Positions 3,100 to 32,200 of a stretch of 32,782 nt of DNA are shown piece after piece (the stretch's first letter is position 1; each line of letters starts with the position of its first letter). The notes beneath the pieces were generated by a model. That model was not told the origin of the DNA. It worked only from the letters and a program-made list of their open reading frames with translations, and did no database searches. A program made the translations under genes and the position numbers. The DNA is from a virus. Lineage: Duplodnaviria; Heunggongvirae; Uroviricota; Caudoviricetes. The stretch is from the IMG/VR virus record IMGVR_UViG_2671180643_000012; one strand, written 5' to 3'.

Positions 3100-3578
3100 T
3101 ATCCCGCCCCCATCATACCTGTGAATCTGGTCGCCAGACTGCCGGCCTTACCGATGAGCGACTCCGCCTGTTTACCGATATCGCCATAAAGCGCGGCCAG
3201 TGATTCATCAACGCGGGTGAGTGACAGCGTAAAATCAATTTTCCGGGGTGTGCCGTCTGCAAAGAAAATACTCCCTGTTTCACTCACCCTGCTGATGACA
3301 TACATGCCGTAAATCATGCCGGTGCCATCCAGCAACGGCCACGCCCGGCCTTCCTCTGCCATCAGCCTGAGCGTGGTCATCGTCAGCTTCCCGCCGGTCA
3401 GTTCGGGATAAAGCACGCCGGCAAGCGTAATGTTTTCCTCACCCACACCGAGAAACTGAAAGGCATCCCGTTTACCGATACGGGAATTTGACGGCCAGCG
3501 ATAATCTGATTCACGCTGCATGGTCTGGTGTGGCAGCGTCTGGCGCATAAAAACAAACATACCTAACGCGAGCATCAT
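3099..3578 (-). CDS. U: Tail protein U
   Basis: 159 aa, same length as P2 gpU; start overlaps the D stop (coupled). Confidence 0.85.
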   Translation of the reverse strand: MMLALGMFVFMRQTLPHQTMQRESDYRWPSNSRIGKRDAFQFLGVGEENITLAGVLYPELTGGKLTMTTLRLMAEEGRAWPLLDGTGMIYGMYVISRVSETGSIFFADGTPRKIDFTLSLTRVDESLAALYGDIGKQAESLIGKAGSLATRFTGMMGAG

Positions 3579-3592
3579 TTTTCGTCACCTCC

Positions 3593-8297: not shown

Positions 8298-8891
8298 CTA
8301 TTTGTCCCGGTTGGCTAAGGGATGACACAATTTATTCTTTGTCGCTGATGAGGGGAATTTTTTATAGAGCGTGGACAGACCAATATCAAAAATCAGCGCC
8401 ACACGTTGACGAGATTCCCCCGCAGCCAGCAACCGTCCGACCTGCTCCCACTCACCCGCAGTGAGTTTCGGTCGTCTGCCACCAATACGACCTTTGGCTC
8501 TGGCCGCTTCCAGTCCGGCGCGTGTCCGCTCGACAATGAGTTCTCGCTCCATTTCAGCCAGGGCACCCATCACATGAAAGAAAAAACGCCCCATCGGCGT
8601 GCTGGTATCAATAGCATCCGTCAGGCTGCGAAAATTAACGCCGCGTTCGCGCAGTTCCTCAACCAGAATGACCAGATGCCGCATACTACGCCCCAGCCTG
8701 TCCAGCTTCCAGACCACCAGAGTGTCACCTGCTGATAATGTTCTGAGCAGTTTTTTCAGTCCCGGCCTGTCGGACTTCGTGCCGCTGATTTTATCCTCAA
8801 AAATCAGCTCACATCCTGCACACTCCAGCGCGTTACGCTGCAATTCCGTGTTCTGGTCATTTGTTGACACGCGTACATAGCCAATAAGCAT
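8298..8891 (-). CDS. Serine recombinase, DNA invertase of the Gin/Hin/Pin/Cin family (tail-fibre invertase)
   Basis: 197 aa; N-terminal MLIGYVRVSTNDQ with the catalytic serine context, conserved resolvase/invertase motifs (LVVWKLDRLGRS) and a C-terminal helix-turn-helix region; sits directly beside the invertible tail-fibre segment. Confidence 0.85.
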   Translation of the reverse strand: MLIGYVRVSTNDQNTELQRNALECAGCELIFEDKISGTKSDRPGLKKLLRTLSAGDTLVVWKLDRLGRSMRHLVILVEELRERGVNFRSLTDAIDTSTPMGRFFFHVMGALAEMERELIVERTRAGLEAARAKGRIGGRRPKLTAGEWEQVGRLLAAGESRQRVALIFDIGLSTLYKKFPSSATKNKLCHPLANRDK

Positions 8892-8946
8892 GATTATCCC
8901 CCTGAATAAAAACCGGGGATGATGCCAGTTAGCTGTTACCTCTGCA

Positions 8947-8972
8947 TTTTCTTAAACGTTGGTTTGGGAGAA
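8947..8972. repeat. gix/hix-like inversion crossover site (left)
   Basis: ttttcttaaacg-tt-ggtttgggagaa: a 26-bp site with imperfect dyad symmetry, similar to the Mu gix site as I recall it. A 13-bp core ttggtttgggaga (8959-8971) recurs in inverted orientation at 10791-10803. Confidence 0.65.
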
Positions 8973-9419
8973 GGTTCTGCATTACCTGTTGGGGTGCCTG
9001 TTCCGTGGCCTTCAGCCACTCCGCCAACAGGCTGGCTGAAATGCAACGGTGCGCCTTTTTCTGCCGAAGAGTATCCGGAACTGGCAAAAGTTTACCCGAC
9101 AAATAAATTGCCTGATTTACGCGGTGAGTTTATTCGTGGCTGGGATGACGGAAGAGGAATAGATACTAGCCGTAGCTTGCTTTCATCACAGGGCGATGCC
9201 ATTCGAAATATAATTGGTGCATTAGTGGATGTCAGGTTTAATACCTATCCTTCTGATTCTGGCGCTTTTACAACCAGCGTCATCGGAGCTGCTTCATCTG
9301 ATTCAATTAACGGTGGTTATGCAAAGCGAGTAACATTCGATGCTTCCAGAGTTGTTCCAACTGCAAACGAAAACCGACCTCGTAACATTGCCTTTAATTA
9401 TATCGTGAGGGCTGCCTGA
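8961..9419 (+). CDS. Alternative tail-fibre C-terminal cassette (Sv'-like), silent in this orientation
   Basis: Open frame through the left crossover site encoding ...GLGE/GSALPVGVPVPW...; it would be fused in frame to the constant part of H after inversion. The ATG at 8919 in the track ORF lies outside the segment and is probably incidental. Stop overlaps the start of the next gene (ATGA at 9416-9421). Confidence 0.6.
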   Translation, partial: GLGEGSALPVGVPVPWPSATPPTGWLKCNGAPFSAEEYPELAKVYPTNKLPDLRGEFIRGWDDGRGIDTSRSLLSSQGDAIRNIIGALVDVRFNTYPSDSGAFTTSVIGAASSDSINGGYAKRVTFDASRVVPTANENRPRNIAFNYIVRAA

Positions 9420-10021
9420 TGAATAAAGCCGTATTAAATAACGAACTCATTGCCATAAAAGCGGGAGACATAACCGTTTATAATTATGATGGTGAAACGC
9501 GGGAATATATTTCCACATCAACTGAATATCTTGCGGTTGGCGTCGGTATCCCGGCATGTTCTTGTTTAGATGCACCAGTTACACATAAAGCTGGTTATGC
9601 AATCTGCCGTTCTGCAGATTTTAACTCATGGGAATATGTGCCAGACCATCGCGGTGAAATCATCTATAGCACCGAAACAGGAGAATCGAAAGAAATCACA
9701 GCTCCGGGTGATTACCCTGAAAATACAACCACTATCGCCCCGTTAACGCCATATGATAAATGGGATGGTGAGAAATGGGTGACGGATACTGAGGCACAGC
9801 ATAGTGCCGCAGTAGACGCGGCAGAAGCACAGCGCCAGTCACTGATTGATGCAGCAATGGCTTCCATTAGTCTGATTCAGCTGAAATTACAGGCCGGACG
9901 GAAGTTGACGCTGGCAGAAACAACCCGACTTAACGCCGTGCTGGATTACATTGACGCGGTGGTGGCAACAGATACCAGCACCGCGCCGGATGTCATCTGG
10001 CCTGAACTACCGGAGGCGTAG
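9419..10021 (+). CDS. Alternative tail-fibre assembly protein (U'-like), partner of the silent cassette
   Basis: 200 aa, translationally coupled to the preceding cassette; C-terminal region has the conserved tail-fibre-assembly ending (DYIDAV...APDVIWPELPEA), mirroring the expressed copy (APDIEWPTPP). Confidence 0.7.
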   Translation: MNKAVLNNELIAIKAGDITVYNYDGETREYISTSTEYLAVGVGIPACSCLDAPVTHKAGYAICRSADFNSWEYVPDHRGEIIYSTETGESKEITAPGDYPENTTTIAPLTPYDKWDGEKWVTDTEAQHSAAVDAAEAQRQSLIDAAMASISLIQLKLQAGRKLTLAETTRLNAVLDYIDAVVATDTSTAPDVIWPELPEA

Positions 10022-10430
10022 GCCATTCAATATCTGGAGCACTGGAAATATCGACCATTTCCAGTGCATCCAGATAATCCAGCCACAAATTATATTGTGC
10101 CAGTTCCTCACCTTTCAGACGACCAATCGCCGCTTTACCAGGCCATTGCTTACTGTTTATGTATTCGTTGACCCGATCAATCAATTGCTGCTTTTCCAGT
10201 TCGGCTGCGGCAATTTGTTCCTCATGAGTTGGCGGTGGAATATCAGCCCAGGCTGGCATTCCATTCACGCTGGAGAGAATTTTCCCCTGCGGCCATACAC
10301 CACCGTATTCCGCTCTTACGGTATCGCTGATTGCAACGGCATCTGATAAATCCCAGCCAGCATCGATATATTCCTGTATTAGGGACTCGGGAAAAAATGA
10401 CAGGTTTGCGGGAGACCATAAAAATTCCAT
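9993..10430 (-). CDS. Tail-fibre assembly protein (functional equivalent of P2 G / Mu U), expressed orientation
   Basis: Follows the H stop by 2 nt; conserved C-terminus. The track ORF starts at an upstream GTG at 10439; I chose the ATG at about 10430. The 3' end overlaps the convergent U'-like gene by about 29 bp. Confidence 0.7.
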   Translation of the reverse strand: MEFLWSPANLSFFPESLIQEYIDAGWDLSDAVAISDTVRAEYGGVWPQGKILSSVNGMPAWADIPPPTHEEQIAAAELEKQQLIDRVNEYINSKQWPGKAAIGRLKGEELAQYNLWLDYLDALEMVDISSAPDIEWPTPPVVQAR

Positions 10431-10432
10431 AA

Positions 10433-11629
10433 TTAACACCCTATTGAATACACCATTACTTCCAGTTGGCTGGATGTATATGTACTGGTTGCAAGAAATG
10501 AAGAAAGATTGTTATTAGATGCACTGACAAACGGACTCGCCGCCACGTTAATGGTGCGGCTTTCAACGTTGGCCCATGACCCAATAACCGTTAATGTGAA
10601 CGGGATTAAATAGTTTGCTGATACTGTAGCCCCTTTAGTACCAGATGCTGCAGGAATAGAGACTTTCTTCCATTGCAGCATCCATTTCTGAGGAAACCGT
10701 ACATATCCTTCATTCAGTTCATTCCTGAATTCAAAACTACCCATATCCGGGATCTGATTCCCCCCTGTGCCCACATCCCGTTTTGCCGCCTCTCCCAAAC
10801 CAAGGTATGCGAGAAGACCAGCTACATCCTTTCCACTCAAATGAGTCAGCGTCTCATCCAGTGGCTGCTTACCTGACAGCGCATTGTTAATGGTGGTACT
10901 GAATTTCGGGTCATTGTTAATGGCTGCGGCAATTTCTTTCAGTGTATCCAGCGTGGCAGGCGCACCGTTAATCAGAGCGGTAATAGCCGCCTGAACAAAC
11001 GCAGTGGTCGCAATCCGCGTGGTGTTATTTCCTGTGGCAGGCGTCGGCGCTTTTGGTTCTCCGGTAAATGTCGGATTATGTTTCTGTGCATACTGGGTAT
11101 GAGGGTCCTGTGCGGCAATGTGTTTTCTCATCTGGTCATCCACATACAGCCTTAATTCCAGGACTTCATCATCCACGTATTTACGGGTCGCCAGTACCAC
11201 CGACGGGTCGATTTTCAGCGTAATAGCTTCGGTATTCGTGACAACCAGAATCATGCGGATAGTCTGGGTACGACCACTTCCTTCCTGCAACTGCGGTTTG
11301 TACGTTTCCGGGCAGTTCGCCACCGCAATGAGTACGCCTTCATCATCATAAAGCCCAATCTCACGGATCCAGAATCCGCCCTCGTTCTCAGGGATGATTT
11401 GCTCCGCAATAATCTGGCTCTGGTTGTTCGGGTCAACACTCAGAAGATTCAGCGGTGCAATGCGTTTCTGATTAATCAGTTTTGTCTGTGCCGGGTCTGG
11501 TGTCGGCAAGACACCATTCGCATCACCAACGGCCATTTGCGTCAGATTCAGCTTACTGCCGAGCATCGTCGCGTTAGCCAGCCGTGCTGCGCCCTGATTA
11601 GTCAGAATGGCGTAGTATTTCACTGTCAT
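10433..11629 (-). CDS. H: Tail fibre protein H (P2-like N-terminal domain; C-terminal about 122 aa encoded inside the invertible segment)
   Basis: 398 aa; N-terminus has P2 gpH-like motifs (GGFWIREIGLYDDEGVLIAVAN, YKPQLQEGSGRTQTIRM); the right crossover site at 10790-10815 lies inside the gene at codons LGLGE. Confidence 0.85.
   Translation of the reverse strand: MTVKYYAILTNQGAARLANATMLGSKLNLTQMAVGDANGVLPTPDPAQTKLINQKRIAPLNLLSVDPNNQSQIIAEQIIPENEGGFWIREIGLYDDEGVLIAVANCPETYKPQLQEGSGRTQTIRMILVVTNTEAITLKIDPSVVLATRKYVDDEVLELRLYVDDQMRKHIAAQDPHTQYAQKHNPTFTGEPKAPTPATGNNTTRIATTAFVQAAITALINGAPATLDTLKEIAAAINNDPKFSTTINNALSGKQPLDETLTHLSGKDVAGLLAYLGLGEAAKRDVGTGGNQIPDMGSFEFRNELNEGYVRFPQKWMLQWKKVSIPAASGTKGATVSANYLIPFTLTVIGSWANVESRTINVAASPFVSASNNNLSSFLATSTYTSSQLEVMVYSIGC
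10790..10815. repeat. gix/hix-like inversion crossover site (right), inside gene H
   Basis: The reverse complement reads ttctcgcatacc-tt-ggtttgggagag, matching the left site at the core and right half. Confidence 0.65.
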
Positions 11630-20389: not shown

Positions 20390-20562
20390 TGTCAGGAGTC
20401 CTGAATAGTGATTAGAGGAGTCACATGTCGGCATCAGTTTCCCGACGATGCGCATCCTCCGCCATCAGTCCCGGATGGCTTATCACTGACACAACAGCAC
20501 CTTAGCGAATCGCGGGGCGCGACTCAGTAGCCTTGCCGTGTATTCATCACGGCGAGGTATTC
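20390..20562. promoter_or_regulatory. Divergent late-promoter region between O and P (expected Ogr-dependent promoters)
   Basis: Intergenic region between divergent late operons, as in P2; contains a partial dyad resembling the TGT-N12-ACA activator site (gtgattagaggagtcaca). Exact promoter elements not resolved. Confidence 0.4.
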
Positions 20563-22335
20563 ATGACCATCACCACAGACACCACTCTTTTACACGACCC
20601 GCGTCGTCAGGCGGCGCTGCTGTACTGGCAGGGGTTTTCCGTGCCGCAGATTGCCGCCATGTTGCAGATGAAACGCCCGACGGTGCAGAGCTGGAAACAG
20701 CGCGACGGCTGGGACAGCGTTGCCCCCATCAGCCGTGTCGAAATGAGTCTGGAAGCGCGGCTGACCCAGCTCATCATCAAACCGCAGAAAACCGGCGGTG
20801 ACTTCAAGGAAATTGACCTGCTCGGACGCCAGATTGAACGACTGGCACGGGTCAACCGCTACAGCCAGACCGGCAACGAAGCAGACCTTAATCCGAACGT
20901 CGCTAACCGCAACAAAGGCGGGCGTCGCAAACCGAAAAAGAATTTTTTCAGTGACGAGGCCATCGAAAAGCTGGAGCAGATTTTCTTTGAGCAGTCTTTC
21001 GACTATCAGTTGCACTGGTATCGCGCCGGGCTTGAGCACCGCATCCGCGATATCCTGAAATCCCGCCAGATTGGCGCGACGTTTTATTTTTCCCGCGAGG
21101 CGCTGCTGCGCGCCCTGAAAACCGGCCATAACCAGATTTTTCTGTCGGCCAGTAAAACGCAGGCGTATGTGTTCCGCGAATACATCATTGCCTTTGCCCG
21201 GCTGGTTGACGTTGACCTGACCGGTGACCCGATTGTCCTGGGCAATAACAGCGCAAAACTGATTTTTCTCGGCACCAACTCCAACACCGCACAGAGCCAT
21301 AACGGCGACCTGTACGTCGATGAGATTTTCTGGATCCCGAATTTTCAGGTACTGCGTAAGGTGGCATCAGGTATGGCCTCACAGAGTCACCTGCGCTCGA
21401 CCTATTTCTCCACCCCGTCCACGCTGGCGCACGACGCCTACCCGTTCTGGTCGGGTGAACTGTTCAACCGGGGACGCGCCAGCGCCGCCGAACGCGTGGA
21501 AATCGACATCAGTCATAACGCCCTTGCCGGAGGTCTTCTCTGTGCGGACGGCCAGTGGCGGCAGATTGTCACCATTGAGGACGCCCTGAAAGGTGGCTGC
21601 ACGCTGTTCGACATTGAGCAGCTCAAACGTGAAAACAGCGCCGACGATTTTAAAAACCTGTTCATGTGTGAATTTGTTGACGACAAGGCGTCGGTGTTCC
21701 CGTTCGAGGAGCTGCAACGCTGCATGGTCGACACGCTGGAAGAATGGGAAGACTATGCGCCGTTTGCCGCCAATCCGTTCGGCTCCCGCCCGGTATGGAT
21801 TGGTTACGACCCGTCACACCGTGGCGACAGCGCCGGATGCGTGGTGCTGGCACCGCCGGTGGTGGCCGGTGGCAAATTCAGAATACTTGAGCGTCACCAG
21901 TGGAAAGGCATGGACTTTGCCACCCAGGCTGAATCCATCCGCAAACTCACCGAAAAATACAACGTCGAATACATCGGTATTGATGCCACCGGCCTCGGTG
22001 TCGGCGTGTTCCAGCTCGTGCGCTCGTTCTATCCCGCCGCGCGCGACATCCGCTACACGCCGGAAATGAAAACCGCAATGGTGCTCAAGGCAAAAGACGT
22101 TATCCGCCGTGGCTGTCTGGAATATGACGTCAGCGCCACCGACATCACCAGCTCGTTTATGGCTATCCGCAAGACCATGACCAGCAGCGGACGCAGCGCC
22201 ACCTATGAGGCCAGCCGCAGCGAGGAAGCCAGCCACGCCGACCTCGCCTGGGCGACCATGCACGCTCTGTTAAATGAGCCACTCACCGCCGGTATCAGCA
22301 CCCCGCTGACATCCACCATTCTGGAGTTTTACTGA
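20563..22335 (+). CDS. P: Terminase large (ATPase) subunit P
   Basis: 590-aa product starting MTITTDTTLLHDPRRQAALLYWQGFSVPQIAAML..., P2 gpP length; track ORF trimmed by 10 codons. Confidence 0.9.
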   Translation: MTITTDTTLLHDPRRQAALLYWQGFSVPQIAAMLQMKRPTVQSWKQRDGWDSVAPISRVEMSLEARLTQLIIKPQKTGGDFKEIDLLGRQIERLARVNRYSQTGNEADLNPNVANRNKGGRRKPKKNFFSDEAIEKLEQIFFEQSFDYQLHWYRAGLEHRIRDILKSRQIGATFYFSREALLRALKTGHNQIFLSASKTQAYVFREYIIAFARLVDVDLTGDPIVLGNNSAKLIFLGTNSNTAQSHNGDLYVDEIFWIPNFQVLRKVASGMASQSHLRSTYFSTPSTLAHDAYPFWSGELFNRGRASAAERVEIDISHNALAGGLLCADGQWRQIVTIEDALKGGCTLFDIEQLKRENSADDFKNLFMCEFVDDKASVFPFEELQRCMVDTLEEWEDYAPFAANPFGSRPVWIGYDPSHRGDSAGCVVLAPPVVAGGKFRILERHQWKGMDFATQAESIRKLTEKYNVEYIGIDATGLGVGVFQLVRSFYPAARDIRYTPEMKTAMVLKAKDVIRRGCLEYDVSATDITSSFMAIRKTMTSSGRSATYEASRSEEASHADLAWATMHALLNEPLTAGISTPLTSTILEFY

Positions 22336-23369
22336 TGAGCAAGAAAAAAGGGAAAACACCGCAACCTGCGGCAAAAAAAATGACCGCCAGCGCCCCGAAA
22401 ATGGAGGCATTCACCTTTGGTGAGCCGGTGCCGGTACTCGACCGCCGTGACATTCTGGATTACGTCGAATGCATCAGTAACGGCAGATGGTATGAGCCAC
22501 CAATCAGCTTTACCGGTCTGGCAAAAAGCCTGCGTGCTGCCGTGCATCACAGCTCACCGATTTACGTTAAACGCAATATTCTGGCCTCGACATTTATCCC
22601 GCATCCGTGGCTTTCCCAGCAGGATTTCAGCCGCTTTGTGCTGGATTTTCTGGTGTTCGGTAATGCGTTTCTGGAAAAGCGCTACAGCACCACCGGTAAG
22701 GTCATCAGACTGGAAACCTCACCGGCAAAATATACCCGCCGTGGCGTGGAGGAGGATGTTTACTGGTGGGTGCCATCCTTCAACGAGCCGACACCTTTCG
22801 CGCCCGGCTCCGTGTTTCACCTGCTGGAGCCGGATATCAATCAGGAGCTGTACGGCCTGCCGGAATATCTCAGCGCCCTTAACTCTGCCTGGCTGAATGA
22901 GTCGGCCACGCTGTTCCGCCGCAAGTATTACGAAAACGGCGCACATGCCGGATACATCATGTACGTCACCGATGCCGTGCAGGATCGCAACGATATCGAA
23001 ATGCTTCGCGAAAACATGGTGAAGTCGAAAGGCCGCAACAACTTTAAAAACCTGTTTCTCTACGCCCCACAGGGAAAAGCCGACGGTATTAAAATTATCC
23101 CGCTCAGTGAAGTGGCAACGAAGGACGATTTTTTTAATATCAAAAAAGCCAGCGCCGCAGACCTGCTGGACGCGCACCGCATCCCTTTTCAGTTGATGGG
23201 CGGCAAGCCGGAGAACGTCGGGTCGCTGGGTGATATTGAGAAAGTGGCAAAGGTCTTTGTCCGCAATGAGCTTATCCCGTTACAGGACAGGATCCGCGAG
23301 ATAAACGGCTGGCTCGGTCAGGAGGTCATCCGCTTTAAAAACTACTCACTGGACACTGACAACGGCTGA
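22335..23369 (+). CDS. Q: Portal protein Q
   Basis: 344 aa, P2 gpQ length; start overlaps the P stop (ATGA). Confidence 0.9.
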   Translation: MSKKKGKTPQPAAKKMTASAPKMEAFTFGEPVPVLDRRDILDYVECISNGRWYEPPISFTGLAKSLRAAVHHSSPIYVKRNILASTFIPHPWLSQQDFSRFVLDFLVFGNAFLEKRYSTTGKVIRLETSPAKYTRRGVEEDVYWWVPSFNEPTPFAPGSVFHLLEPDINQELYGLPEYLSALNSAWLNESATLFRRKYYENGAHAGYIMYVTDAVQDRNDIEMLRENMVKSKGRNNFKNLFLYAPQGKADGIKIIPLSEVATKDDFFNIKKASAADLLDAHRIPFQLMGGKPENVGSLGDIEKVAKVFVRNELIPLQDRIREINGWLGQEVIRFKNYSLDTDNG

Positions 23370-23538: not shown

Positions 23539-23557
23539 GTGCTTTCCCCGCCTCGCC
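23539..23557. other. cos site (19-nt cohesive end), reverse complement of GGCGAGGCGGGGAAAGCAC
   Basis: Sequence gtgctttccccgcctcgcc matches the P2 19-nt cohesive end as I recall it; lies about 170 bp beyond Q, where cos sits in P2. Confidence 0.8.
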
Positions 23558-23639
23558 CGCCCGCTTCATGGGGCGGTTTTAATGCAGTTGCATGAGTACG
23601 TTGAATCCTCGCTAGCTGTGACGTAAAGCAATGAGGACG

Positions 23640-23886
23640 CATAACTTTGACACATGCAAAACCATGCACCTGATACATGCATAGTTATTACTTTGTAAAA
23701 ACATAAAAAAAGGAAATCCCATGAACAAAAATCAAACTATTAATAAAAATTTTTATATCTCTTAGAACAAAAGATTTTGCTTGAACAAAGTAAACTTCTG
23801 AGGTAGATCTTTATCGTTTAGCAAAATAATTCATGTTAAACAGCTTAAATATTTATACAATATCATTGGCAATGATGAGGTTTTAA
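23640..23886 (+). promoter_or_regulatory. AT-rich leader/promoter region of the cargo gene, containing three CATGCA repeats inside an ATAACT/AGTTAT inverted-repeat frame
   Basis: Composition becomes AT-rich near 23640; a perfect TTGACA at about 23647-23652; CATGCA at about 23653, 23663 and 23676; a possible -10 tacaat at about 23856-23861; GAGG Shine-Dalgarno 6 nt upstream of the ATG at 23887. Confidence 0.35.
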
Positions 23887-26106
23887 ATGGAACTTAAATT
23901 AAAGAATATAACCAGCTATAAGAAAGATAGCTTCACGACTCTTAATCTCTCAAAAAAAATTAATATACTTTATGGTCACAACGGTTGTGGAAAATCAACC
24001 ATATCTAATTATTTCTATAATCCAAATAACACGGACTACAAAGAATGTGAATGTCCTTTCATAGATACTTTTCGCCTATTGGTTTATAATACTAAGTTTG
24101 TTGAGGATAATTTTTATAATGCAAAAGAGCAAAAAGGAGTATTCACTTTAAGTAAGGAAAATGCTGACATTGAAAAAGAATTGTTGGAAAAAGAAGCTAT
24201 AAGACAAGACCTACTTACAAAATACAAAGATAAAAAAAACGTTATTGAGCGTTTAATTAAAGATAAAAACAATAAAGAAAATGAATATATTGATTTAATA
24301 TGGAATAAAGCAGAACCTTTTAGATCATCTGACTTAAAGAACTTGATGAAAGGTCAGTTAGGAAGCAAGAGATCATTTTATGAGCAAGTTAAAAAAGCCC
24401 CTCAAACCACTGACGTTAACATCGAGTCACTTGCTCAAGAATATAGTATTCTTTTAAAGAACAAAGATAAATTCACTGCATCAATTACACCTTTAGAAAA
24501 ATATATCATTTCAGAAAAAGATAAAGAATCTTTATCCACTCCGATTATAGACTCAAGTAATAGCTATTTGTCAGAAACAATTAAACAACTTCAAAACCTT
24601 GACTGGGTGAAAAAAGGGAAGGAATTATATTTAAATGGCACATGTTGCCCATTCTGCCAAGAAGACACTATTAAAGACAAATTTTTAGAAGCAATTGAAT
24701 CTATCTTTGATGATAGCTACTCCAAGAAAGTTGACCAAATACGCATTATCAGATCGTCTTATGAATCCGCTACCATAGATAATTTAAGAAAAATAAAACA
24801 AGAGATTTCATCTTGTGAATTAATCACCTCAAAAGAAAAAGATATAACATCATCTCATATAGCGTTATTAGAGGAAATAGCAAACAAAAACTTAAAATTG
24901 ATGTTAGATAAAATCAATAACCCATCTATATCTATTATTTTGGAATCCAATAGCGACCTTGAAGCAAAGGTAGTTGATAATATAGCAGAGTACAACAATA
25001 GAATTAAAGAAATAAATATTAAAGTCAAACAATTTAAGGATAGTGAAAAGTCTATACGTTACAAAATATGGGGAGCAATAAGAGAATTATGCAACGCTGA
25101 GTTTGAAGCTTTCTCAAAATATGAGAATGACTATAAAATCATTTATGAACAATATCAACTTGAATTAAATACCATAAAAGAACAAGGAGATAACAATAGC
25201 AAAAAGATCAAAGAGCTACGCGATCAAATATCTAACATTGATGCAACCATAGATTCTATAAATCAACGTCTAAAATTATTAGGAATTTATGGTTTTAGCA
25301 TAAAAAAACACACTGAGAGCAATGATAAATATATTATATCACGTTCTGAAAACACAACAGATAAAGATGTATACAGATCTCTTAGCGAGGGTGAAAAAAC
25401 TTTAATTACCTTTCTCTACTTTCTGGAATGCTGTAAAGGTAAGACAGATAAGAATGATACGGATATGCGAGATGTATTTATCGTTATTGATGATCCAATA
25501 TCCAGCCTCTCTCAAAATTATGTGTACGATATTGCTTCAATAATTCACCATGAAATAATCAACAATAACAAAGCAGTAAAGAAAACATTAATACTCACAC
25601 ATAACCTTTATTTCTTTCATGAACTTATCAAATTAGCTCCTAGAAGCAAAGAAGATAGAACATTCAAGCGTGATTATTATCTTGGACGAGTAACAAAAAA
25701 TGAATATAGCATAATTACAGAAATAGAGAAAAAGAGCATTCAGAATGAATACCAGTCCCTATGGCAAGTATTAAAAGATGCGAAGGATGGAAGGGTAAAT
25801 AAAGTTATAATACCTAACATCATGAGAAATATACTGGAATACTACTTCGCATTTGTTCATAGAACGGATGCATTACAGACAGAGTTAAATAAACTTGCTA
25901 GCGATGATAAGAATAATGATTTTAGAGCATTTTATAGATACATTAATAGAGGTTCCCATTCAGATGCAGTTAATATCACAGACATGGGAGATATATCTCC
26001 AGAGAAATATATGGAGCAACTAAAAACCATTTTTCGTATGACTGGTGATGAAAAACATTATTTGAAAATGATGGACGAAGAGGAAGAGGAAACCGTTACC
26101 GCTTAG
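23887..26106 (+). CDS. Candidate anti-phage defence protein: ABC/SMC-type ATPase with CxxC coiled-coil insert and C-terminal putative nuclease region (PrrC/RloC-like architecture)
   Basis: 739 aa. Walker A GHNGCGKST near the N-terminus, then VFTLSKEN; K/E-rich coiled coil with central CCPFCQ; ABC-signature-like LSEGEK; Walker B VFIVIDDPISSLS; LILTHN; C-terminal about 190 aa with R-x3-E (MRNILEYY) and a His about 40 residues later (NRGSHSD). Strongly AT-rich with many ATA/AAA/AAT codons, unlike the flanking phage genes; occupies the P2 tin/old cargo position. Confidence 0.6.
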   Translation: MELKLKNITSYKKDSFTTLNLSKKINILYGHNGCGKSTISNYFYNPNNTDYKECECPFIDTFRLLVYNTKFVEDNFYNAKEQKGVFTLSKENADIEKELLEKEAIRQDLLTKYKDKKNVIERLIKDKNNKENEYIDLIWNKAEPFRSSDLKNLMKGQLGSKRSFYEQVKKAPQTTDVNIESLAQEYSILLKNKDKFTASITPLEKYIISEKDKESLSTPIIDSSNSYLSETIKQLQNLDWVKKGKELYLNGTCCPFCQEDTIKDKFLEAIESIFDDSYSKKVDQIRIIRSSYESATIDNLRKIKQEISSCELITSKEKDITSSHIALLEEIANKNLKLMLDKINNPSISIILESNSDLEAKVVDNIAEYNNRIKEINIKVKQFKDSEKSIRYKIWGAIRELCNAEFEAFSKYENDYKIIYEQYQLELNTIKEQGDNNSKKIKELRDQISNIDATIDSINQRLKLLGIYGFSIKKHTESNDKYIISRSENTTDKDVYRSLSEGEKTLITFLYFLECCKGKTDKNDTDMRDVFIVIDDPISSLSQNYVYDIASIIHHEIINNNKAVKKTLILTHNLYFFHELIKLAPRSKEDRTFKRDYYLGRVTKNEYSIITEIEKKSIQNEYQSLWQVLKDAKDGRVNKVIIPNIMRNILEYYFAFVHRTDALQTELNKLASDDKNNDFRAFYRYINRGSHSDAVNITDMGDISPEKYMEQLKTIFRMTGDEKHYLKMMDEEEEETVTA

Positions 26107-26353
26107 GCCGCATATCATCGGGTTGGGTAAGAACGACGGTGTTCACACACCGTCTCCCACTTACCGAAACGATAGCGATTGTACTGACGTACTTTCACTA
26201 ACTTTAACATGAGATTATCTCCATGCCAGCACTATTGTTGCCAATAGCAGCCTTTACACCCTTTGTATAAAGCTAATACCAAGAGCAATGCAAGGATACC
26301 CCAAGCGGTAACTGGCGTGGATTCTAGAGCAGCCTAACTAAAAAATCAAAGCA

Positions 26354-28621
26354 TTAATTAAATCCCGGCCACTCATCATTTACCGGATACCTGAAGTTTA
26401 CCCCCTCATAATTTACGGTTGCCCCACGCGCCAGCGCCTCAAGCTCCCATCGCTGAGGCCTGATACCGTTCTGACCAAGGTCAACGCGGATACGGGGGAT
26501 TTGCATTCGTTCCGACCGGGTCAGTCTGGCCGAAGGCGCAATTTCATGCGGTTTTAACGGGCTTCCGTTTCTTTGCTGACGATTTGGTGTTCTCAGTTCG
26601 TGTTTTAATGCCCCCCTGAGCGCCCTCACGACATCCGGGTCATTCCATTCGATAACACCGTCATCGACCAGATTAAGCACGGCTGCGGCATGTTCAGAAG
26701 GTGTGGGAGCCGTTAACGAAGTATCACTGCCGGTGAACTTTCCACAGTTATTGACAGGACTCCGAGGCGCGGCGATGCCGCTTTTTAAAGTCAAAGGCTC
26801 AACGACCGGAACTTTCGGCACAATGCGCCAGTCCGTCGTTCTGGTGATATGAATATGACGCGCGCCGAGATGCGGCGCGTAAATGCCGACCACTCTCTCG
26901 ACTTCTTCCTCGTACTCGTTAACGTCATCCGACGGGCTACGGGCAACCCTGACAGTCTGACAATCGCGCGGGACATTTGCCCCACCCTGCGCGCTGATAT
27001 ACAACGCAAAATCACCACTGTCTGCGGCAGCGCGAGCAGCCTCGACGCGTTCGTCAAACTCATCAGCAATACTGACGCCGCGAGGCAATTTGCGTAGTTC
27101 ACGGTAAGCCCCCATTGTCGGCAGTCCAACCGTTTTAAATTGCGGGATGCGCCACGTTGACGCCCATGCGGTAACAGCCGCGGCAGTATCTTTAAGCGGC
27201 TTACCGGTATCGTTATCGAGCTGACCATCCAGTGCATAGCCGTCGATGTTTTTTGAAATGTATTTCGCGATATATCCCGCAGCACCGCCCCGGTTAAGGT
27301 GCTTTGCCTGAAAACGGTTTCGCGCTGCTCCTCTTTCGTCGCCATCCTCTTTGAGCGCATAGCGACGCATGATTTCGATAATCTGGTTACGCTGGCGCGA
27401 ATTACAAAAAAGCATCATATGCCAGTGCGGCGTTCCGTCGTGGTGTGGCTCGACGACACGCAAACCGTAGACCTGTAAATCATTATCCTTGAATGCCGTG
27501 CGCATCAGGCTCCAGATGCGGCAGAGATAACGCTGCGCATCCTTTGGATTAAATGCCTCATCGTTCCAGCCGTGATTAAGCTGAACGGTTTTACTTTCGC
27601 CTTTTCTGACCTGACGAGTCGGGTGATACTTTGACGGCGCAGTCAGCGTGATAAACATCCCCACATCACCCTCTGCGGCGGCGTAACGCTCAATACCGGC
27701 AATGGTGTTCATCAGCTCCATCCGGCGAATTTCAGGATTAGAAATACTGCCCATCACCTTACTGATAAGGTCGATGCGCTCGCCGGTTTCCCTGTTTTCA
27801 AGGTCACACGATTTAAGAAATTCCAGATTTGCCTGGCGGCGCGCACGCACATCACGAATGGCGTGTTTACTGGCATAAGGAGAACGGTCTTTATTGACCT
27901 CCCCGACAGCTATCAGTAACGCTTCATGCCAGCGCATACGCTGGCCTTTAAGCTGATGAGTCCACCACTCATCGTTAAACAGACGGGCAATGGCAGAATA
28001 TGCCTGCCTCGTGGTCATCTGCCCTTTACGGTATTTTTTCCAGTAGAGAGGGGAAATATTGAAAGCACGTGCAGCGCCAGCAACATGACCATAGAGGTGA
28101 GCCTGCGCCTCATCCGTAAACAGCGATTCTTTTTCGCCATGCGCATCCACCCAGGCATCACTGAGTTCCTCATACATCATGAAAAGCTGCGATGAGATAC
28201 GGGCAGCAAACTTTTTCAGCTCCTTGTCATTCATTCCCGGCAGGCGCGCATAGTGGTCACGCTCTGCCAGAAACAGCAACGACGCGTCGGTGTTCATTTC
28301 ATGGCGCTGATTCACACGCTCAATGCGCGGCCATAAACGACGCTGAAAAGTGGATGTGAGGAAATAAAACCCGTGTACCGGGCTTTTATTGCGCCGGATG
28401 TAGTCATAGCGTGAAGTAAACAGCGAGCGCAAAAAGTAAGGCAGGCGGTTAATCGTGGATAAAACACCTTGCACCTGACGCATCTCGTCACGTGTAAGGG
28501 GTCTTTCGCGCCCGACGGCCTCGCGTGGCGCGTTCCATGCATAAGCACCGGTAAACGCCTTACCGGTGCCTGCAGCAAATGCTGAAGGAGGGACAAAACG
28601 CCCGGAGGCTTTAACGGCCAT
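26354..28621 (-). CDS. A: Replication initiation protein A (rolling-circle nickase)
   Basis: Long ORF with the tyrosine active-site region (GYIAKYISKNIDGYAL) and a P2 gpA-like N-terminus MAVKASGRFVPPSAF; I chose the ATG at 28621. The track ORF starts 14 codons upstream at a TTG (28663). Confidence 0.85.
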   Translation of the reverse strand: MAVKASGRFVPPSAFAAGTGKAFTGAYAWNAPREAVGRERPLTRDEMRQVQGVLSTINRLPYFLRSLFTSRYDYIRRNKSPVHGFYFLTSTFQRRLWPRIERVNQRHEMNTDASLLFLAERDHYARLPGMNDKELKKFAARISSQLFMMYEELSDAWVDAHGEKESLFTDEAQAHLYGHVAGAARAFNISPLYWKKYRKGQMTTRQAYSAIARLFNDEWWTHQLKGQRMRWHEALLIAVGEVNKDRSPYASKHAIRDVRARRQANLEFLKSCDLENRETGERIDLISKVMGSISNPEIRRMELMNTIAGIERYAAAEGDVGMFITLTAPSKYHPTRQVRKGESKTVQLNHGWNDEAFNPKDAQRYLCRIWSLMRTAFKDNDLQVYGLRVVEPHHDGTPHWHMMLFCNSRQRNQIIEIMRRYALKEDGDERGAARNRFQAKHLNRGGAAGYIAKYISKNIDGYALDGQLDNDTGKPLKDTAAAVTAWASTWRIPQFKTVGLPTMGAYRELRKLPRGVSIADEFDERVEAARAAADSGDFALYISAQGGANVPRDCQTVRVARSPSDDVNEYEEEVERVVGIYAPHLGARHIHITRTTDWRIVPKVPVVEPLTLKSGIAAPRSPVNNCGKFTGSDTSLTAPTPSEHAAAVLNLVDDGVIEWNDPDVVRALRGALKHELRTPNRQQRNGSPLKPHEIAPSARLTRSERMQIPRIRVDLGQNGIRPQRWELEALARGATVNYEGVNFRYPVNDEWPGFN

Positions 28622-28886
28622 ATGAGCCAAAAGCCTCTGAACAACGCCTGCTGAGTTGCTCAACCTGCGCGTTTAAATCAGCAAAAGACGTTGCGCTTCC
28701 GGTCAGAATATCGTGATGCATCAGGCCGGAAACGAGCTGGCTTAATTTCGGATAATAACCAACCACCGCCAGCCATTCCTGACCGGCGTTTTTACCGCTT
28801 TCCGCTCTCTTTTTCTCGTGGAGAATAAACTGAAAGCTGTCACTGGTAACGACATAACGTTCGCCAATTTCAATACGAATACTCAT
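28611..28886 (-). CDS. Small early-operon protein (P2 orf83-like), function unknown
   Basis: 91-aa ORF just upstream of A, overlapping its start. Confidence 0.6.
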   Translation of the reverse strand: MSIRIEIGERYVVTSDSFQFILHEKKRAESGKNAGQEWLAVVGYYPKLSQLVSGLMHHDILTGSATSFADLNAQVEQLSRRCSEAFGSYGR

Positions 28887-31186: not shown

Positions 31187-32200
31187 ATGGCAATCAAAAA
31201 ACTCGATGATGGTCGATATGAAGTGGACATCCGCCCTACTGGACGTAACGGAAAACGCATCCGTAGGAAGTTTGATAAGAAAAGCGAAGCTGTCGCTTTC
31301 GAAAAATACACGTTGTACAACCACCACAATAAAGAATGGCTATCAAAACCAACAGACAAACGACGTCTGTCGGAACTGACACAGATCTGGTGGGATTTAA
31401 AGGGTAAACACGAAGAGCATGGGAAATCTAATCTTGGAAAAATTGAAATCTTCACAAAAATAACGAATGACCCATGCGCATTTCAAATCACGAAATCCCT
31501 TATCAGCCAGTACTGCGCCACCCGAAGAAGTCAGGGTATTAAACCTTCGAGTATCAATCGTGATTTAACATGTATTAGCGGCATGTTTACAGCCCTGATT
31601 GAAGCGGAGTTATTCTTTGGTGAGCACCCTATCAGAGGGACAAAGAGGCTTAAGGAGGAAAAACCAGAAACAGGCTATCTCACACAGGAAGAAATTGCCT
31701 TACTGCTTGCAGCACTTGACGGCGACAATAAAAAGATTGCGATTCTTTGCCTGAGTACAGGAGCACGTTGGGGAGAAGCAGCTCGTTTGAAAGCAGAAAA
31801 TATCATCCATAACCGCGTCACGTTTGTTAAAACGAAAACAAACAAACCACGCACCGTCCCGATCTCAGAGGCTGTTGCCAAAATGATCGCGGATAACAAA
31901 CGAGGTTTTTTATTCCCTGATGCTGATTACCCTCGCTTCAGACGAACAATGAAAGCAATAAAACCGGATTTGCCAACGGGGCAAGCCACACATGCACTAA
32001 GGCACAGCTTTGCCACTCATTTCATGATTAATGGAGGAAGTATTATCACACTACAACGGATACTAGGTCACACGCGGATTGAGCAAACTATGGTTTACGC
32101 TCATTTTGCGCCAGAGTACCTTCAGGACGCCATTTCTCTTAATCCGCTAAGAGGTGGTACTGAAGCCGAGAGTGTCCACACAGTGTCCACAGTAGAGTAA
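31187..32200 (+). CDS. int: Tyrosine integrase
   Basis: 337 aa, P2 Int length; C-terminal catalytic motifs (HALRHSFATH ... LGHTRIEQTMVYAHF) with the tyrosine nucleophile; next to the att core. Confidence 0.9.
   Translation: MAIKKLDDGRYEVDIRPTGRNGKRIRRKFDKKSEAVAFEKYTLYNHHNKEWLSKPTDKRRLSELTQIWWDLKGKHEEHGKSNLGKIEIFTKITNDPCAFQITKSLISQYCATRRSQGIKPSSINRDLTCISGMFTALIEAELFFGEHPIRGTKRLKEEKPETGYLTQEEIALLLAALDGDNKKIAILCLSTGARWGEAARLKAENIIHNRVTFVKTKTNKPRTVPISEAVAKMIADNKRGFLFPDADYPRFRRTMKAIKPDLPTGQATHALRHSFATHFMINGGSIITLQRILGHTRIEQTMVYAHFAPEYLQDAISLNPLRGGTEAESVHTVSTVE

Follow-up and report, generated by a model that had tools for sequence, protein, structure and literature searches.

What is encoded by the markedly AT-rich gene that separates the portal gene from the replication gene of a P2-like prophage, and does its product act alone? 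The gene lies in a stretch of 32,782 nucleotides (IMG/VR virus record IMGVR_UViG_2671180643_000012; hereafter the window), for which an earlier note had proposed a single-gene candidate defence system in the slot near cos where phage P2 carries old and tin. The open reading frame is present as described there, with an ATG start and 739 codons, and its surroundings are as follows.

20533-22335, strand not given: terminase gene P, next to portal Q
22335-23369, strand not given: portal gene Q, the left-hand flank of the gene
23539-23557, minus strand: P2 cos core, 19 nt, an exact match to GGCGAGGCGGGGAAAGCAC (0 expected by chance), marking the cos-proximal hotspot
23781-23809, plus strand: promoter-like island TTGAAC-17 nt-TAGATC, a candidate promoter 5' of the gene
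23877-23880, plus strand: Shine-Dalgarno sequence GAGG, 6 nt ahead of the ATG, read off the sequence
23887-26106, plus strand: RloC-family gene, 739 aa from the ATG, with an ABC ATPase head, a coiled-coil/CxxC insert and a predicted C-terminal anticodon-nuclease-type domain
26354-28663, minus strand: replication gene A, the right-hand flank of the gene

The gene sits between portal Q/cos and A; since A is on the minus strand, the two are convergent, as had been claimed. The deviant composition is equally clear, with a GC content of 0.302 in the gene and 0.534 in the remaining window (composition count). The cos core at 23539-23557 was placed with the core consensus of P2 cos, and the backbone beside it is kept in about 90 P2-like phages. 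The claim that this is the old/tin slot, holding varied cargo, is confirmed by the Q/cos-A position together with the hotspot definition of Rousset et al. (2022), in which the gpQ-gpA interval is a P2 hotspot that carries old and tin in P2 itself. Four allele classes, with 64-70% identity between them, fill the same slot, and a 100% identical gene is found in E. coli LD93-1 (WP_021520307.1). Homologues elsewhere include one in Tn7-like cargo adjoining a NERD-kinase-helicase gene and another adjoining a SIR2-domain gene. We conclude that the gene is an AT-rich swappable cassette in a documented defence hotspot.

Upstream, the promoter-like island is kept in three of four aligned alleles despite the divergence of the DNA around it; a generic promoter scan chose another, weak site at 23837-23866. 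A generic terminator scan found no terminator 3' of the gene, and Rfam and tRNA scans of the cassette gave no match above threshold. The Q-A interval, flanked by portal Q and gene A of the phage, contains neither hsd genes nor a partner gene of the Mre11/SbcD type.

The motifs on which the earlier reading was built are all present in the protein, and are laid out along the gene as follows.

23974-24000, plus strand: Walker A/P-loop GHNGCGKST, aa 30-38
24154-25227, plus strand: largely helical insert splitting the ATPase head, about aa 90-447, some 360 aa
24646-24657, plus strand: CPFC (C254-C257), a zinc-hook-type CxxC with predicted zinc binding, in the loop between model helices 238-248 and 264-273
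25381-25398, plus strand: ABC signature LSEGEK, aa 499-504
25474-25512, plus strand: Walker B/D-loop VFIVIDDPISSLS, aa 530-542, in which S540 is also invariant
25588-25605, plus strand: H-loop/switch LILTHN, aa 568-573
25723-26103, plus strand: C-terminal all-alpha domain, aa 613-739, with R647, E651, S690-H691 and the invariant H724

In an alignment of 34 homologues with 25-70% identity, the Walker A motif (G30, N32, G33, G35, K36, T38), the hook (C254, P255, F256, C257), the signature (S500, E501, G502, E503), the DDP of Walker B (D535, D536, P537) and the H-loop histidine (H572) are invariant, and so are R647, E651, S690 and H691, which the earlier note had put forward as a candidate Arg/Glu/His set. 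Invariance of these columns over 34 homologues is far beyond chance. The block that had been called Q-loop-like (KGVFTLSKEN, aa 83-92) is indeed conserved, with G84 invariant and F86, T87 and L88 present in at least 90% of the homologues, but it has no invariant Gln and falls in a low-confidence loop of the model. In the AF2 model the insert includes long helices at 90-141, 276-309, 315-344, 356-381, 383-401 and 403-447; K makes up 14% and E 11% of its residues, a high share of both. The hook motif reads CCPFCQ (aa 253-258), its Cys 253 being an extra Cys of this allele. In the C-terminal domain (AF2 model, pLDDT 83, pTM 0.78) the putative catalytic residues lie in MRNILE (aa 646-651) and RGSHSD (aa 688-693) with the spacing R647-x3-E651-x39-H691, encoded at nt 25825-25839 (R647/E651) and 25954-25959 (S690-H691).

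Davidov and Kaufmann (2008) described RloC proteins as being of 658-897 aa, with ABC motifs, a coiled-coil insert bearing CX2C and a C-proximal Arg-X3-Glu-X36-52-His, often with Ser before the His. The protein in the window has 739 aa, ABC motifs that are all invariant in the 34 homologues, an invariant CPFC in an inter-helix loop of its helical insert and R647-x3-E651-x39-S690-H691 with all four residues invariant; it is also 65% identical over its full length to a protein in the P2 slot of E. coli APEC O1. The profile searches that the earlier note had proposed gave full-length matches both to Pfam AAA_13 (E 2e-102, aa 16-716 on model positions 9-712 of 713) and to PADLOC PDC-S06 (PDLC04886; E 4.4e-253, aa 2-732 on profile positions 4-725 of 727). 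No NCBIfam model covers the protein, its PHROG family has no known function attached, and Pfam and PADLOC gave no TOPRIM or OLD family match. Among more distant homologues, one that is 28% identical is named 'wobble nucleotide-excising tRNase' by JGI and another, 26% identical and located in Streptococcus prophages, is annotated in GenBank as 'translation-disabling ACNase'; a genome scan for homologues returned no Geobacillus or Acinetobacter locus. The earlier assignment of the gene to the PrrC/RloC-type AAA_13 ATPases is thus supported, the protein having all the sequence features by which RloC was defined, and by its sequence the gene is an intact member of the known RloC family in the cargo slot of a P2-like prophage.

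The C-terminal domain deserves separate consideration. Searched alone, it hits Pfam AAA_13 in the C-terminal region of the model (E 1.6e-17), and a profile built on it collected 1343 cluster representatives, in which it is nearly always C-terminal in proteins of 700-790 aa. Among the best 150 matches in 1.84 billion representatives we found only proteins of RloC size and fragments of them. Short matches of 345-451 aa were considered as possible PrrC proteins, and all ten that were checked are truncated PDC-S06 proteins. The PADLOC PrrC model matches aa 456-734 of the whole protein (E 2.5e-14). Because the C-terminal domain alone gives no match to that model at E <=1, what ties it to the PrrC nuclease is its motif, together with assignments in the literature. 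The structure model and fold search that had also been proposed showed a Rad50-like ATPase head and a hook-type CxxC loop, but the model of the C-terminal domain had no significant match to any solved fold, and a nuclease (HEPN) fold was not confirmed; sequence and profile searches of the PDB likewise found no solved relative outside the P-loop and coiled-coil regions.

The Rad50-like head, the failure of the C-terminal fold to match a nuclease and the name 'DNA repair ATPase' carried by one UniRef homologue would suit a Rad50- or SMC-like ATPase of repair, partition or conjugation that has no nuclease effector and no part in defence. We consider such a function very improbable: the invariant R-x3-E...S-H stands in a dedicated C-terminal domain that is missing in Rad50, SbcC and gp46, the interval lacks the partner gene that such proteins work with, the gene is a swappable cassette of a defence hotspot, and the protein matches PADLOC candidate-defence models from end to end. 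A second alternative accepts a nuclease regulated by an ABC ATPase and supposes that it cuts mRNA, rRNA or other RNAs rather than being an anticodon-specific tRNase that excises the wobble base. HEPN-type nucleases do include both mRNases and tRNases; both biochemically characterised RloCs and PrrC, however, are anticodon nucleases, and the catalytic motif and its spacing match RloC, so that we regard a broader RNase as unlikely, if less so than the repair ATPase. We hypothesize that the gene probably encodes an RloC-family anticodon nuclease, expressed in the lysogen as cargo of the P2 cos-proximal hotspot.

We stress that the gene, its family and its position are already known, RloC having been named in 2008, and the novelty implied in the earlier note, which treated the gene as an uncharacterised candidate, does not hold. 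Table S5A of Rousset et al. (2022) contains WP_021520307 itself, as an AAA_13 locus of one gene in P2-hotspot system 5, a system with 420 occurrences, and Table S5B labels the family 'RloC-like'; the protein that represents it there shares 48% identity over 400 aa with the one in the window. The system stands outside their reported validated systems and has no row in the HHpred table of cloned systems. PADLOC lists the family as PDC-S06. Entry 51 in Table S1 of Davidov and Kaufmann (2008) is YP_852004, of 738 aa, with the neighbours 'Phage replication initiation, Capsid'. From strain, length and flanks we infer that this is the APEC O1 slot protein (WP_000423308.1, APECO1_RS04465), and the P2-slot lineage therefore appears to have been in the RloC orthologue table since 2008. 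Anti-phage activity of RloC is inferred in the RloC literature examined, in which we found no phage-challenge test of the P2-borne alleles or of any RloC. The sole unreported feature is, apparently, a conserved gene of 31 codons that accompanies the RloC-like gene, to which we return below.

How such a nuclease might act can be extrapolated from the RloC proteins of Geobacillus kaustophilus (GkaRloC) and Acinetobacter baylyi (AbaRloC), the only two for which wobble excision, activation by DNA and ATP hydrolysis, and inhibition through the zinc hook are known. In characterised RloC, mutation of the catalytic triad removes both nuclease activity and toxicity, mutations in the hook, such as C291G in GkaRloC, hyperactivate the enzyme, and DNA and the ATPase jointly turn on the nuclease; in vivo, inducers of double-strand breaks activate it, and the targets are tRNA-Glu and tRNA-Gln. 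By analogy, the zinc hook and the ATPase of the P2-borne protein would hold it silent, and the nuclease would be switched on when the protein bound DNA ends or breaks and hydrolysed ATP. It would then cleave the anticodon loops of tRNAs on both sides of the wobble base, excising that base, a lesion that phage tRNA repair enzymes would not be expected to reverse easily. Translation would halt and the infected lysogen would be removed, an abortive outcome that would protect the clone and exclude competing or superinfecting phages. Zinc binding, dimerisation and DNA sensing by this protein are all extrapolations of this kind.

The term 'single-gene' in the original description is only partly right: the main gene is intact, and beyond its stop codon lies a conserved ORF of 31 codons, tail-to-tail with it, in a tail of normal GC content that travels with the cassette.

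26107-26353, unstranded: GC-normal cassette tail of 247 bp, accompanying the RloC-like gene
26115-26210, minus strand: basic ORF of 31 aa, MLKLVKVRQYNRYRFGKWETVCEHRRSYPTR, a candidate second component, tail-to-tail with the gene and unannotated
26218-26222, minus strand: Shine-Dalgarno sequence GGAGA of the small ORF, retained in all alleles
26321-26349, minus strand: promoter-like site TTGATT-17 nt-TAGAAT from a consensus scan, a putative promoter 5' of the small ORF

The small ORF lies 8 nt past the stop codon of the gene, and its distance from the end of the RloC-like gene is 9-31 nt across 11 tail-to-tail alleles. An ORF of this kind follows the gene in all but one of the RloC-like alleles with 35% identity or more (12 of 13), spread over 10 genera; it is tail-to-tail in the 11 alleles just mentioned and co-directional in a Pseudomonas locus. 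Its occurrence extends to loci that are not P2-like, in Xenorhabdus, a V. cholerae Tn7-like element, V. splendidus, Neptuniibacter and Pseudomonas. Its variable sites fall mostly on third codon positions (4, 5 and 15 at the first, second and third, respectively), and gene callers do predict it. As for the promoter-like site 5' of it, each of the four aligned alleles has the TAnAAT hexamer, and three of them also have a -35 of the TTGAT type. The peptide matches phrog_21154 (E 4e-9), a family of no known function, and no family of Pfam, NCBIfam or PADLOC.

The tail is better conserved than the gene it accompanies: between alleles that share only 64-70% identity in the RloC-like gene, it keeps 82-86%. 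In a set of 50,697 phage records it was found in Enterobacter phage ENT4 only, which is also the one phage carrying the close RloC-like gene; it occurs in 94 of 5426 E. coli genomes, in one copy each, and adjoins the gene wherever this was cross-checked. We considered whether the tail might be P2 backbone and ruled this out, as neither P2 nor about 90 other P2-like phages with the same cos flank contain it.

These observations raise the possibility of a two-gene module, which would add to the reading as an RloC-family nuclease rather than replace it, and in which the peptide would silence the nuclease or be its antitoxin, would license it, or would confer self-immunity and so spare the lytic growth of P2. 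The recurrence of the peptide ORF across genera and loci, its pattern of substitutions, the retention of its Shine-Dalgarno sequence and -10-like hexamer, and the restriction of the tail, among phage records and E. coli genomes alike, to places where an RloC-like gene is found all speak for it, as does the fact that PrrC, of the sister family, requires an external silencer. This support is one of co-location, and the case has been made in the literature that RloC is governed by an internal switch and requires no external silencer. Moreover, the peptide is missing beside P0056, a homologue of 37% identity, and beside every homologue of 34% identity or less; relatives of it stand last in the cI-operon cargo of an Stx1 phage and of Salmonella phage Oslo, with no RloC-like gene present; and no family annotation points to a function, a homologue search with a lambdoid relative of 44 aa having returned 'hypothetical protein' names only. 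On balance, a module of this kind is a tentative proposal, and so, at the same strength, is its general form, namely that gamma-proteobacterial RloC-like genes make a tail-to-tail pair with a basic peptide of 30-34 aa (phrog_21154 family) that controls the nuclease. From co-location, then, the 31-aa peptide may modulate the RloC-like nuclease. If the pair is real, the peptide could be an external silencer, analogous to EcoprrI for PrrC, or could let the prophage turn off the suicide nuclease it carries while it replicates and its cos is cut, and the relatives in lambdoid cI operons would suggest a small regulator that serves prophage defence cargo in general. Given that the small ORF is conserved, one-gene catalogues, and clones that end at the stop codon of the gene, may miss a component.

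Returning to the RloC-family nuclease itself, its closest characterised counterparts are GkaRloC (804 aa) and AbaRloC (826 aa), zinc-responsive anticodon nucleases that excise the wobble nucleotide. Compared through their published features, they have the same elements in the same order, an ABC ATPase head, a coiled-coil insert with a CxxC hook and a C-terminal nuclease. In GkaRloC the triad is Arg-x3-Glu-x40-His (R692, E696, H737) and here the second spacing is x39 (R647, E651, H691), with Ser before the His in both. Like these RloCs, the gene is transferable as a unit with no linked R-M locus; unlike them, it encodes a shorter protein (739 aa), is borne in a prophage hotspot and has a companion ORF of 31 aa that goes unmentioned in the RloC literature examined. 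The APEC O1 protein (738 aa), likewise encoded between Q and A in a P2-like prophage, has the same architecture and the same downstream ORF, and differs in belonging to another allele class, about 70% identical in DNA. System 5 of Rousset et al. (2022) and PADLOC PDC-S06 are catalogue entries only, both as a single gene.

PrrC of E. coli, linked to the type Ic R-M system EcoprrI, shares the succession of an ABC-type NTPase and a C-terminal nuclease with an Arg-x3-Glu...His triad. PrrC proteins are of 341-416 aa and lack the coiled-coil/hook insert, whereas the 739-aa protein here has it; PrrC is always found inside an hsd locus that silences it, whereas the gene here has no hsd neighbours; and PrrC nicks tRNA, whereas RloC excises the wobble base. 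Rad50, SbcC and T4 gp46 have no C-terminal nuclease domain and act with a nuclease partner of the Mre11/SbcD type, which is absent here. Old of P2 shares the slot and the logic of orientation, and likewise joins an ABC ATPase sensor to a nuclease; according to a 2026 preprint it is a tRNase that acts abortively in response to DNA defects and phage replication. Its effector is a TOPRIM domain, unrelated to the RloC/PrrC-type domain, it has no zinc-hook coiled coil, and we detected no homology between it and the 739-aa protein beyond the ABC head. The P2 slot alternates between two unrelated fusions of an ABC ATPase with a nuclease, Old and the RloC-like protein, both of which appear to couple the sensing of DNA state to the destruction of tRNA.

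The window contains a near-complete P2-like prophage, in which the RloC-like gene is flanked by the following features:

left end of the window: host peptidase-U32 gene and ogr
20533-22335: terminase gene P
22335-23369: portal gene Q
23539-23557: P2 cos core of 19 nt, an exact match to the P2 cos consensus
23887-26106, + strand: RloC-like gene, 739 aa, ATG start with a Shine-Dalgarno GAGG 6 nt 5' of it
26115-26210, - strand: unannotated ORF encoding a basic 31-aa peptide, MLKLVKVRQYNRYRFGKWETVCEHRRSYPTR
26354-28663, - strand: replication gene A
31187-32200: integrase gene, at the end of the window opposite peptidase-U32 and ogr

The RloC-like ORF follows P, Q and the cos core and ends 247 nt from the stop codon of gene A; since it lies on the + strand and A on the - strand, the two genes are convergent. 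Its GC content is 30.2%, compared with 53.4% for the remaining window. The gpQ-gpA interval is the P2 hotspot as defined by Rousset et al. (2022), and holds old and tin in P2. Taken together, the flanks, the GC contrast and this definition confirm the proposal of the earlier note that a gene of composition unlike that of the phage backbone occupies the P2 cos-A cargo slot, convergent with A. Elsewhere in the prophage, a serine invertase gene (Resolvase and HTH_7 domains; 8298-8891, - strand) adjoins an oppositely oriented tail-fibre tip with a Collar domain (8919-9419), which is grouped with a tail-fibre-assembly gene (9419-10021); this pair faces the resident genes for assembly (9993-10439) and fibre (10433-11629), and 8298-10439 looks like an invertible host-range segment of the Mu Gin or P1 Cin type.

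The protein matches Pfam AAA_13 over almost the entire model (residues 16-716 against positions 9-712 of 713, E 2e-102), the PADLOC candidate defence system PDC-S06 end to end (E 4e-253) and, over residues 456-734, the PADLOC PrrC model (E 2.5e-14). It belongs to PHROG 2801, a family without functional annotation, and no NCBIfam model matched it. Davidov and Kaufmann (2008) described RloC as distant homologues of PrrC, of 658-897 aa, with ABC ATPase motifs, a coiled-coil insert with a CX2C zinc hook at its centre, and a C-proximal Arg-X3-Glu-X36-52-His set in which Ser often precedes His. All these characters are present, the last as R647-x3-E651-x39-S690-H691. In an alignment of 34 homologues with 25-70% identity, from Enterobacterales, Vibrio, Chlorobiota and metagenomes, we observed invariant residues in Walker A (G30, N32, G33, G35, K36, T38), the hook (C254, P255, F256, C257), the ABC signature (S500, E501, G502, E503), Walker B and the D-loop (D535, D536, P537), the H-loop (H572) and the C-terminal set (R647, E651, S690, H691). 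Every motif that had been quoted was found in its place; the block labelled Q-loop-like is indeed conserved (G84 invariant; F86, T87 and L88 in 90% or more) but lacks an invariant glutamine, and we therefore keep that label as tentative. An alignment-based AlphaFold model (mean pLDDT 81.5) has a β-rich head in which the N- and C-terminal segments of the ATPase come together, a helical insert (residues ~90-447) with CPFC in a loop between helices, and an all-α C-terminal domain.

In isolation, the C-terminal domain matched PDC-S06 and the C-terminal part of AAA_13 (E 1.6e-17), and did not match the PADLOC PrrC model. A profile of the domain retrieved 1343 cluster representatives; among the best 150 of these it forms the C-terminus of RloC-sized proteins or fragments thereof, and PrrC was not seen among them. 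The assignment as a nuclease therefore rests on the triad, which is invariant and spaced as in RloC, and on published mutagenesis of the equivalent residues R692, E696 and H737 in the Geobacillus kaustophilus enzyme, GkaRloC. The original observation is real, and its interpretation as a PrrC/RloC-type ATPase is correct.

The gene is also an already catalogued member of the RloC family. E. coli LD93-1 has an identical copy, WP_021520307.1, under the annotation 'AAA family ATPase', and Rousset et al. include it in their Supplementary Table S5A as 'NZ_KE699267 AAA_13 WP_021520307'; their Table S5B gives 'AAA_13' as P2-hotspot system 5, with 420 occurrences and the remark 'RloC-like', and over 400 aa the representative that they give shares 48% identity with our protein. 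In the 2008 paper, entry 51 of Supplementary Table S1 is Escherichia coli APEC O1 YP_852004, of 738 aa, with neighbours Phage replication initiation and Capsid. APEC O1 has one 738-aa AAA ATPase, flanked by portal and replication endonuclease genes in a P2-like prophage, and this allele type is 65% identical to our protein over its full length. A 2013 HEPN survey, whose type example APECO1_4465 may be this same APEC O1 protein, proposed for prophage-borne ABC-HEPN proteins a role, independent of R-M, in the exclusion of other phages. Among more distant homologues, one at 28% identity is named 'wobble nucleotide-excising tRNase' by JGI, and one at 26%, from prophages of Streptococcus, bears the annotation 'translation-disabling ACNase'.

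Of 5426 complete E. coli genomes, 20 have a near-identical allele and 113 have any allele that blastn can detect; all of these are chromosomal, with almost never more than one copy per genome. In all inspected loci, representing four allele classes with 64-70% mutual identity, it is the sole annotated gene between Q and A. Only Enterobacter phage ENT4, among sequenced phages, carries a close relative. Outside P2, a V. cholerae homologue is Tn7-like cargo adjoining a NERD-kinase-helicase gene and one on a metagenome contig adjoins a SIR2-domain gene; the wider family spans many phyla. In Klebsiella, a heavily deleted P2 remnant (the host peptidase-U32 gene, ogr and a few tail-gene fragments) retains the small ORF and an intact RloC-like gene of 738 aa, after which host yegS-like DNA begins at once. 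The remnant has the same host-ogr junction as the window, and it seems that the cassette was kept while the prophage decayed.

Compared with other RloC-carrying alleles, upstream backbone identity stops near 23594, while some P2-like phages without the gene remain similar to ~23683, which places the start of the AT-rich cassette between 23595 and ~23685. At 23651-23684, ATGCA-N5-ATGCA is followed about 10 nt on by the palindrome ATGCAT; this arrangement is kept in four alleles despite diverged flanks, also occurs in some P2-like phages without the gene, and could be where a protein binds at the left boundary of the variable region. The 247-bp tail between the gene and A is 82-86% identical among alleles, as against 64-70% for the genes themselves. 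We considered whether this tail is P2 backbone and rejected the idea, since among 50,697 phage records it occurs only in ENT4, and the E. coli copies (94 of 5426 genomes, once each) abut the RloC-like gene at every cross-checked locus. The P2 slot in E. coli holds at least four RloC-like allele classes, whose flanks are much closer than the genes (82-86% downstream) and which have the final codons ...VTA stop in common; these sequences suggest either that cassettes are exchanged through a junction at the gene's extreme 3' end or that the protein is under diversifying selection.

The description of a single-gene system requires correction, because the small ORF is conserved and linked to the RloC-like gene in 12 alleles. 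Its GGAGA Shine-Dalgarno sequence and a -10-like hexamer are both conserved, its variable sites are distributed 4/5/15 over the codon positions, and gene callers report it in public assemblies, all of which is evidence for a real gene. Searching all fetched loci with a peptide HMM, we found it tail-to-tail with the RloC-like gene, 9-31 nt from its end, in 11 alleles from nine genera, including E. coli (four allele classes), Klebsiella, Yersinia and Serratia and, in non-P2 contexts, Xenorhabdus, V. cholerae, V. splendidus and Neptuniibacter. At a Pseudomonas locus the small ORF is co-directional with the gene and 275 nt downstream of it, bringing the total to 12 alleles in 10 genera (11 of 12 tail-to-tail), all with RloC-like genes of at least 35% identity. 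The same search did not find it beside one 37%-identical homologue or beside any homologue of 34% identity or less. Pfam, NCBIfam and PADLOC hold no family for the peptide, which matches the functionally unannotated phrog_21154 (E 4e-9). Longer relatives of 41-44 aa, named only 'hypothetical protein', lie at the end of post-cI cargo, immediately before N:

3456-3590 of the Stx1 phage SH2026 locus: small-ORF relative, at the lambda rexAB position
3462-3587 of the Salmonella phage Oslo locus: small-ORF relative, at the lambda rexAB position

These two loci have no RloC-like gene, so the association of the peptide family may be with prophage cargo at large. Within the small ORF, 28 nt beyond the RloC-like stop codon, lies a perfect 8-bp hairpin (GACGGTGT tcac ACACCGTC, 26134-26153), which the alleles keep with some variation in the bases of stem and loop; neither strand has a T-run after it. 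The hairpin might act as a terminator or pause site for both convergent transcripts.

Whereas architecture, conservation and genomic context were established here, the mechanism is inferred from GkaRloC and AbaRloC, the characterised enzyme of Acinetobacter baylyi. [quoted passage not shown] By analogy, a P2 lysogen would express the nuclease at a low level, DNA ends or damage created by an incoming phage would trigger it, and the resulting halt in translation would abort the infection. As the gene is already catalogued its interest is limited; modest value remains in that RloC has apparently never been challenged with phages (we found no literature report of such a challenge for a P2-borne allele or any RloC) and that the small ORF linked to it seems not to have been reported. 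A 2026 preprint describes Old, which canonically occupies this slot, as an abortive tRNase controlled by an ABC ATPase and responsive to DNA defects; the P2 slot thus seems to exchange functional analogues.
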